789 nucleotides of DNA from the NCBI RefSeq assembly GCF_003334765.1, contig NZ_QOWT01000099.1; one strand, 5' to 3'. Positions 1 to 789 of this stretch are shown here, piece by piece (the first letter of the stretch is position 1; every line of letters begins with the position of its first letter). A program made the position numbers and the translations under genes. Below the pieces are notes generated by a model. The model saw only the letters and a program-made list of their open reading frames with translations. It did not search any database and was not told the origin of the DNA. Origin of the DNA: Escherichia coli. Its GTDB lineage: Bacteria > Pseudomonadota > Gammaproteobacteria > Enterobacterales > Enterobacteriaceae.

Positions 1-789
1 TGACAACGGCGACCTGGTGCGCATCAGCGGCCCGCGACAGACGCGGGAATACGGCTACAGCGCCACGGGCAGGCTGGAGAGTGTGCGCACCCTCGCACCA
101 GACCTGGACATCCGCATCCCGTATGCCACGGACCCGGCGGGCAACCGGCTGCCGGACCCGGAGCTGCACCCGGACAGTACACTCACAGTGTGGCCGGATA
201 ACCGCATCGCGGAGGATGCGCACTATGTCTACCGCCACGATGAATACGGCAGGCTGACGGAGAAGACGGACCGCATCCCGGCGGGTGTGATACGGACGGA
301 CGACGAGCGGACCCACCACTACCACTACGACAGCCAGCACCGCCTGGTGTTCTACACGCGGATACAGCATGGCGAGCCACTGGTCGAGAGCCGCTACCTC
401 TACGACCCGCTGGGACGGCGAATGGCAAAACGGGTCTGGCGGCGGGAGCGTGACCTGACGGGGTGGATGTCGCTGTCGCGTAAACCGGAGGTGACGTGGT
501 ATGGCTGGGACGGAGACAGGCTGACGACGGTGCAGACTGACACCACACGTATCCAGACGGTATACGAGCCGGGAAGCTTCACGCCGCTCATCCGGGTCGA
601 GACAGAGAACGGCGAGCGGGAAAAAGCGCAGCGGCGCAGCCTGGCAGAGACGCTCCAGCAGGAAGGGAGTGAGAACGGCCACGGCGTGGTGTTCCCGGCT
701 GAACTGGTGCGGCTGCTGGACAGGCTGGAGGAAGAAATCCGGGCAGACCGCGTGAGCAGTGAAAGCCGGGCGTGGCTTGCGCAGTGCGG
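1..789 (+). CDS. rhs: Rhs-family YD-repeat protein, internal fragment of the conserved core (partial at both ends; reading frame begins at nt 2, 262 complete codons to nt 787, no start or stop in the window)
   Basis: Seen in sequence: a single + strand frame (phase starting at nt 2) is open across the entire window. The translation contains five YD-repeat motifs: YGYSATGRL (50..76), [11 protein letters not shown] (224..256), YHYDSQHRL (320..346), YLYDPLGRR (395..421) and WYGWDGDRL (497..523). Codon usage is GC3-rich (ctg, ccg, cgg, acg, ggc dominate). Established knowledge: the translated peptide matches, from memory, the conserved core shared by E. coli RhsA/B/C/D; no alignment was possible here. 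I cannot tell from core sequence alone which paralog this is, so the symbol is given at family level only. The track omits this frame presumably because it has no in-window start or stop. Confidence 0.93.

Follow-up and report, generated by a model that had tools for sequence, protein, structure and literature searches.

An RhsD-E core segment identical at two Escherichia coli loci as a probable recombination tract and a hazard for short-read linkage of toxin tips

The window, by which we mean the whole 789-nt stretch of Escherichia coli DNA analysed here, lies entirely inside the core of an RhsD-E subfamily Rhs gene, and the same sequence occurs without a mismatch at two loci of the K-12 chromosome. 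To the explanation as a whole, namely that this is RhsD-E core carried at two exact loci, that it would act as a conversion tract and recombination substrate, and that it would expose short-read assemblies to a risk of mis-joins, we assign a probability of roughly 90%.

Frame +2 ran without interruption across all 789 bases, and a start codon, a stop codon and the core/tip boundary were all absent from the window, in agreement with the original prediction of pure core sequence. In a profile search, the 262 encoded residues matched positions 875–1136 of the 1261 positions of NCBIfam NF041261 (RHS_core) with an E-value of 1.2e-174 and 583 bits, where the whole-protein cut-off of 2000 bits is out of reach for any 262-residue fragment. 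YD/RHS repeats were found with TIGR01643 (YD_repeat_2x), which scored 17.8 bits against a cut-off of 15.8 bits, while the matches to Pfam RHS_repeat were weak (best i-Evalue 0.025). The window corresponds to codons 872–1133 of the 1426 codons of K-12 RhsD, and the DPMGL core/tip boundary of RhsD (...RYITQDPMGL) lies ~115 codons 3' of the window, with a divergent tip thereafter. The parent genes of the window matches were annotated as RhsD or RHS element core protein and showed the gene layout of the NF041261 family, that is, a GC-rich core, a PxxxxDPxGL boundary, a variable tip and a small immunity gene, the boundary and tip being read from the parent genes 3' of the window. Judged from these matches, the window encodes part of the YD-repeat shell, namely its C-terminal third, in an Rhs polymorphic toxin of E. 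coli that belongs to the RhsD-E subfamily.

The coordinates of the features are collected in the table below. Alignment of the window with the Rhs chains in the PDB, Tse5 (8cp6) and Salmonella bongori Rhs (8qjc/8qjd), was confined to window residues 55–202. The DNA of the charged segment that follows is conserved in rhsA/B/C, the ungapped 78% alignment covering window bases 2–789. The GC content of the window was 64–69%, and its antisense open reading frames look like by-products of 65% GC coding DNA, with no sign of a gene. A search of the window with Rfam returned no RNA feature at E-values up to 1, and a search for internal repeats of the window returned trivial matches of 15–18 nt and nothing longer.

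Table. Features of the window and of the exact repeat that contains it, in window coordinates
Feature	Position	Strand	Basis
Internal fragment of an Rhs core ORF	1..789, frame +2, bases 2-787	+	Profile match and K-12 identity
Charged segment ending RAWLAQC, no obvious YD repeats	608-787, residues 203-262	+	Outside the solved-structure alignments
Antisense ORFs, 50-121 aa, proline-/glycine-/arginine-rich	183-548 and others	-	ORF list
Exact rhsD/rhsE repeat, 848 bp	Window base 1 to coordinate 848, 59 bp past the window		Zero mismatches

In the K-12 MG1655 chromosome (NC_000913.3), the window was found at 100% identity at rhsD (525873-526661) and at rhsE (1528327-1529115), both on the + strand, in direct orientation and 1,002,454 bp apart. 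The rhsD copy adjoins ybbP and runs into its own tip and then ybbC; the rhsE copy adjoins yncH and runs into a different tip and then ydcD. The other K-12 relatives, rhsA, rhsB, rhsC and ybfO (an orphan fragment 3' of rhsC), were 77.7-78.1% identical to the window, and this gap of ~22% to rhsA/B/C, beside 100% identity with rhsD and rhsE, is the pattern of a member of the RhsD-E subfamily. Exact runs common to rhsA/B/C and rhsD/rhsE reached 44 bp at most; the window is assignable to the RhsD-E subfamily because rhsA/B/C hold no longer exact run, and with ~78% identity and runs of this size they cause no confusion in either its assignment or its assembly. The claim that such a window cannot be placed at a specific locus was therefore right for the locus itself, given the two exact K-12 copies and the varied contexts in metagenomes, but too broad for the subfamily.

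The further expectation of several near-identical multi-kb copies per genome fitted rhsA, rhsB and rhsC, which are 99.2%, 97.0% and 96.8% identical over 3.7 kb in K-12, but not K-12 rhsD and rhsE, where rhsE is truncated and 1,577 bp are alignable at 95.6% identity. A full-length rhsE from a wild strain had 3,774 bp in common with rhsD at 96.7%. K-12 rhsE is a 5'-truncated pseudogene from which vgrG and the 5' core have been lost (L003:3891-5939 vs L007:4214-10612), whereas wild strains carry an intact vgrG-rhsE-ydcD module at the yncH site with vgrG immediately 5' of the full-length rhsE. [quoted passage not shown] Locus-anchored queries of 5,426 finished E. coli genomes recovered the K-12-type truncated rhsE junction in 540 and the linkage of the rhsD tip to ybbC in 1,853.

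By megablast, 3,821 of the same 5,426 finished genomes had the window, in 3 near copies at the median and in no more than 9; the best place was ≥99% identical in 1,480 records, and in many genomes it was an exact match to rhsD. By sensitive blastn the number of carriers rose to 3,902, the median to 7 copies and the maximum to 13. Together with the two exact K-12 loci, these counts bear out the claim that the core is multi-copy. The remaining 1,524 genomes (28%) gave no homolog of the core segment by sensitive blastn, so Rhs cores of this kind are far from universal in E. coli. Paired exact copies were counted in K-12; elsewhere, because the search lists the best place per record, they were bounded through the locus-anchored queries. 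The original prediction named single-copy occurrence as the finding that would overturn it, and some exact-match genomes do hold one near copy, so that the multi-copy claim depends on the source strain. The number of places per genome goes down to 1, and among the 30 exact-match genomes listed, one, ECCWS199, had a single megablast place. The source genome of the window may be of this kind, in which case the assembly caveat would be void there, yet this is improbable, given that the other 29 of those 30 genomes had 2-6 near copies, that the medians among carriers are 3 near copies by megablast and 7 in total by blastn, and that K-12 derivatives carry two exact copies each.

Recombination between these cores has been recorded directly. 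In conjugation experiments with K-12 MG1655 derivatives, a transferred fragment circularised via rhsD × rhsE to give a circle of ~957 kb (PMC9551528), and the sole homology between K-12 rhsD and rhsE is the 1.58-kb stretch that includes the window. The reported circle is ~45 kb smaller than the distance of 1,002 kb between the two copies in the reference. In Salmonella, an rhs gene recombined with an orphan tip over 522 bp at 95% identity (PMC3967940), and in the C-terminal displacement model core and tip are decoupled and exchange is confined to highly identical cores of the same clade (PMC2935791). By the standards of this literature, the 848-bp tract should be long enough for RecA-dependent exchange. 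A crossover within it would circularise, duplicate or delete the intervening megabase, or would bring a core together with a different tip and immunity module.

Among the 5,426 finished E. coli genomes, an rhsE-type tip at the rhsD site was found in one, DETEC-S792 (L129, NZ_CP116067.1, 7960-18835). Its ybbP site holds an Rhs core with an rhsE-type tip, followed by ydcD, yncO and ISAs1 and, after ISAs1, by a second complete Rhs gene; the two Rhs genes were 93.0% and 94.6% identical to the window. This arrangement indicates that natural relocation of the rhsE module to the rhsD site occurs. The claim that the core is a recombination substrate, or rearrangement hot spot, is thus backed by a sequence footprint, consisting of the mosaic with its perfect block and the DETEC-S792 module, and by direct experiment on rhsD × rhsE (PMC9551528).

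The exact 848-bp repeat exceeds short reads and most inserts, so that short-read assemblers cannot tell which flank goes with which tip, and they would at times connect the upstream flank of rhsE with the rhsD tip, or that of rhsD with the rhsE tip. A scan of public metagenome contigs for the 40-base start of the window gave at least 120 contigs, and 29 of those listed carried the full window exactly. In the metagenome contigs, the exact window was joined to two different tips and occurred in three different upstream contexts. We then took as a linkage set the 13 contigs, among those listed, in which the window had ≤2 mismatches and a unique upstream flank could be followed through to a recognisable tip. 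Nine contigs were concordant, five running from ybbP to the rhsD tip and four from yncH to the rhsE tip, and the other four (4/13) were cross-linked. In three of these (L017, L028 and L031), yncH was joined to the rhsD tip and ybbC, and in the fourth (L027), ybbP was joined to the rhsE tip and ydcD, the reciprocal junction to L017. Upstream of the window, L017 was a perfect K-12 rhsE flank, and from the window onward it was a perfect K-12 rhsD locus through ybbC, ylbH, ybbD and ylbG, which places its D/E switch inside the 848-bp block. Several other contigs switched more than once between D-type and E-type diagnostic sites.

The junction from yncH to the rhsD tip occurred in 0 of the 5,426 finished E. 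coli genomes, where the best places for the L017 query covered 74% of it, up to the very point at which the true rhsE locus diverges. The reciprocal arrangement, from ybbP to the rhsE tip, was seen among the finished genomes in DETEC-S792 only, at 95.7% identity and in a different structure. The L017- and L027-type joins are very probably assembly chimeras, which is the more economical reading because coverage is low (2-5x) and the flanks are K-12-identical. That chimeric joins may create false tip linkage, as had been predicted, is in line with these contigs and with the empty count in finished genomes.

The cross-linked contigs could also be real recombinant chromosomes, either junctions of 1-Mb duplications or tip-swapped strains, and several facts lend this some colour: rhsD × rhsE recombination does occur (PMC9551528), DETEC-S792 carries an rhsE-type tip at the rhsD site, and a 1-Mb tandem duplication would yield exactly the yncH-rhsE'::rhsD-ybbC junction of L017. 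We nevertheless regard it as distinctly unlikely, as the L017-type arrangement was missing from all 5,426 genomes, including the 540 with the same truncated rhsE junction, and DETEC-S792 differs from the contigs in its 95.7% identity and its two tandem Rhs genes. The reciprocal L027 junction would amount to a 1-Mb deletion, which on the K-12 map would take out essential genes. Both flanks of L017 and L027 are otherwise K-12-identical, and the repeated D/E switches in several contigs are characteristic of paths through an assembly graph that cross between paralogs at 2-5x coverage.

We had also considered a pile-up of contig ends in the core as a sign of fragmentation. Core DNA formed the end of 36 of 100 whole metagenome contigs, but the counts were not above the length-based expectation (34 observed vs 43.8 expected at the 5' end and 2 vs 18.6 at the 3' end); these data show neither fragmentation nor collapse, and this line of evidence was dropped. 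In published 454 assemblies of K-12 derivatives, rhsD and rhsE are listed as causing physical contig breaks, and rhs elements account for 5 of the 62 common breaks (PMC3045373 Table 6).

K-12-identical flanks at 2-5x coverage were seen in contigs deposited as 'marine metagenome' (L017, L027, L028, L031, L010, L019, L034, L051, L061, L065, L084 and L096), which suggests contamination by a laboratory strain or by reagents. One contig, L056 (OKVX01001758.1), carried the first 40 bases of the window twice, at 975-1014 and 5777-5816, 4.8 kb apart on the same strand, with strong divergence from the window over the remainder of each copy. The contig has the appearance of a pair of tandem Rhs cores of another subfamily that have this short conserved stretch in common with the window.

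Records deposited as plasmids and carrying Rhs core were mostly small and non-mobilizable. The record labelled Klebsiella oxytoca FDAARGOS_1334 plasmid unnamed5 (L130, NZ_CP069916.1), which is 19 kb, linear and non-mobilizable, held the window at 100% identity together with ybbA, ybbP, rhsD, ybbC and allantoin genes, that is, an E. coli chromosomal segment, and most probably represents a contaminating contig to which the plasmid label was wrongly given. The circular pF873-2 (L131, NZ_OY757120.1; 7,307 bp) consisted of rhs-locus DNA alone and corresponded to the stretch between two tandem Rhs core genes of ~1,359 finished chromosomes. The record stems either from a loop in the assembly graph or, with lower probability, from genuine excision of a core-plus-tip circle, and such circles have been postulated as intermediates (Jackson et al. 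2009, PMC2935791). Other small non-mobilizable 'plasmids' with Rhs core were CP048292.1 (7,010 bp), NZ_CP034740.1 (6,767 bp), CP088347.1 (14.6 kb) and NZ_CP069827.1 (2.3 kb, K. pneumoniae). We rejected plasmid-borne copies as evidence of mobility, with the two records inspected being a contaminant and, in pF873-2, rhs DNA alone, neither of them a real mobile plasmid. A more eventful combination, in which contigs of the L017 type come from 1-Mb tandem duplications that segregate at appreciable frequency, circles like pF873-2 are genuine excised intermediates and the block is a hot tract in the course of active conversion instead of the mark of one past event, seems to us very unlikely.

The 848-bp block that contains the window is the longest exact run of any rhsD/rhsE pair. 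The 69 mismatches in the 1,577 aligned bases of K-12 rhsD and rhsE were unevenly spread: the block had none, 36 fell in the 415 bp that precede the window (divergence of 8.7%), and the other 33 fell in the last 314 bp of the alignment (10.5%). When 69 mismatches were placed at random, a mismatch-free run of 848 bp arose in 0 of 200,000 permutations, where the longest such run was 328 bp, and the analytic bound for 848 bp was ~5e-22. The same patchiness extended over the full-length cores (L002:3262-7035 vs L007:6389-10162), with perfect blocks at gene positions 1-200, ~700-1600 and 2613-3460, divergence of 3-16% between the blocks, and unrelated rhsD and rhsE tips beyond position ~3740. A second rhsE allele, from strain EBJ001 (L008), agreed with rhsD where the first allele differed, which indicates that rhsE alleles differ in their conversion tracts. 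From this mosaic pattern, the 848-bp identity is best read as a probable recent gene-conversion or recombination tract, in which an exchange between the two loci would have homogenised cores that are otherwise 3-16% divergent.

Purifying selection on the Rhs shell could be invoked for the identity instead, the region being a conserved YD-repeat shell that is 78% identical even to rhsA/B/C, but this is hardly credible when synonymous differences are abundant in both flanks (26 of 40 differing codons on the left and 11 of 22 on the right) and absent from the 282-codon block, when the truncated K-12 pseudogene is still identical, when perfect and divergent blocks alternate over the entire core, and when the switch points in the D/E site patterns vary between sequences. 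Protein-level selection does not purge synonymous changes; with no synonymous change in the block and with one copy a pseudogene, constraint on the protein cannot explain the identity, and we discarded it as the cause of the perfect block on the synonymous-site count.

The window begins on the same base as the 848-bp block, and the base immediately before it is a D/E mismatch. At the right end of the window there is no variable site, the first one lying at coordinate 849. We considered whether the window is a repeat-bounded collapsed contig, which it probably is not, its right end being 59 bp short of the next variable site, and no contig of 789 bp was present among the metagenome contigs listed (at least 120). 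The coincidence of the left edge with the block is probably due to chance.

The biology of this core is already known, as these are the best-studied Rhs genes of the best-studied bacterium, and the value of the present analysis is practical. It serves as a warning for the typing of Rhs/T6SS effectors and immunity genes from short-read genomes or metagenomes, where an exact repeat of ~850 bp just upstream of the tip may lead a contig to pair a locus with the wrong toxin tip or immunity gene, as about a third of the flank-to-tip contigs examined, among those listed, appeared to do. Assigning a tip to a locus requires long reads, or read pairs that bridge the tract. In addition, the rhsD/rhsE mosaic would serve to illustrate neatly how gene conversion acts between paralogs dispersed over the K-12 chromosome.

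Compared with K-12 RhsD and RhsE themselves, the window showed no difference: the sequence is the same at 100% identity, and the GC-rich core, DPxGL boundary, variable tip and immunity gene are all theirs. The RhsD-E subfamily of Rhs elements was reportedly defined by C. W. Hill and colleagues. The subfamilies rhsABCF, rhsDE and rhsGH are set out in PMC2935791. What is added here is the measurement of the shared tract as an 848-bp exact block in a mosaic core.

The closest precedent in K-12 is the chromosomal duplication mediated by rhsA and rhsB that, as relayed in PMC3967940, gave rise to the name 'rearrangement hot spot' (Lin, Capage and Hill 1984). In both cases, direct-repeat Rhs cores are substrates of unequal homologous recombination. 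The rhsA/rhsB pair offers 3.7 kb at 99.2% identity with an exact run of 1,811 bp, whereas the K-12 rhsD/rhsE pair offers 1.58 kb at 95.6% with an exact run of 848 bp, at a spacing of 1.0 Mb. In the main/orphan system of Salmonella Typhimurium, a full-length core gains a different toxin tip and immunity gene by homologous recombination in the 3' part of the core (Koskiniemi et al. 2014, PMC3967940). The Salmonella partners lie side by side in a single locus, whereas here the exact copies sit at two distant loci, and tip exchange was seen only once in the finished E. coli genomes. The C-terminal displacement model (Jackson et al. 2009, PMC2935791) agrees with a mosaic confined to D and E and with the 22% divergence from rhsA/B/C. 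That model describes incoming tips that oust the resident ones, whereas the window bears on homogenisation of the core only. As an assembly problem, the block resembles rRNA operons, IS elements and tufA/B, exact repeats beyond read length that break contigs or lead to false joins; rhs elements appear beside them in PMC3045373 Table 6. Unlike those repeats, the block is internal to a gene in which the variable end specifies the biologically important toxin and immunity identity, and a wrong join therefore yields a plausible but false effector-immunity pairing.
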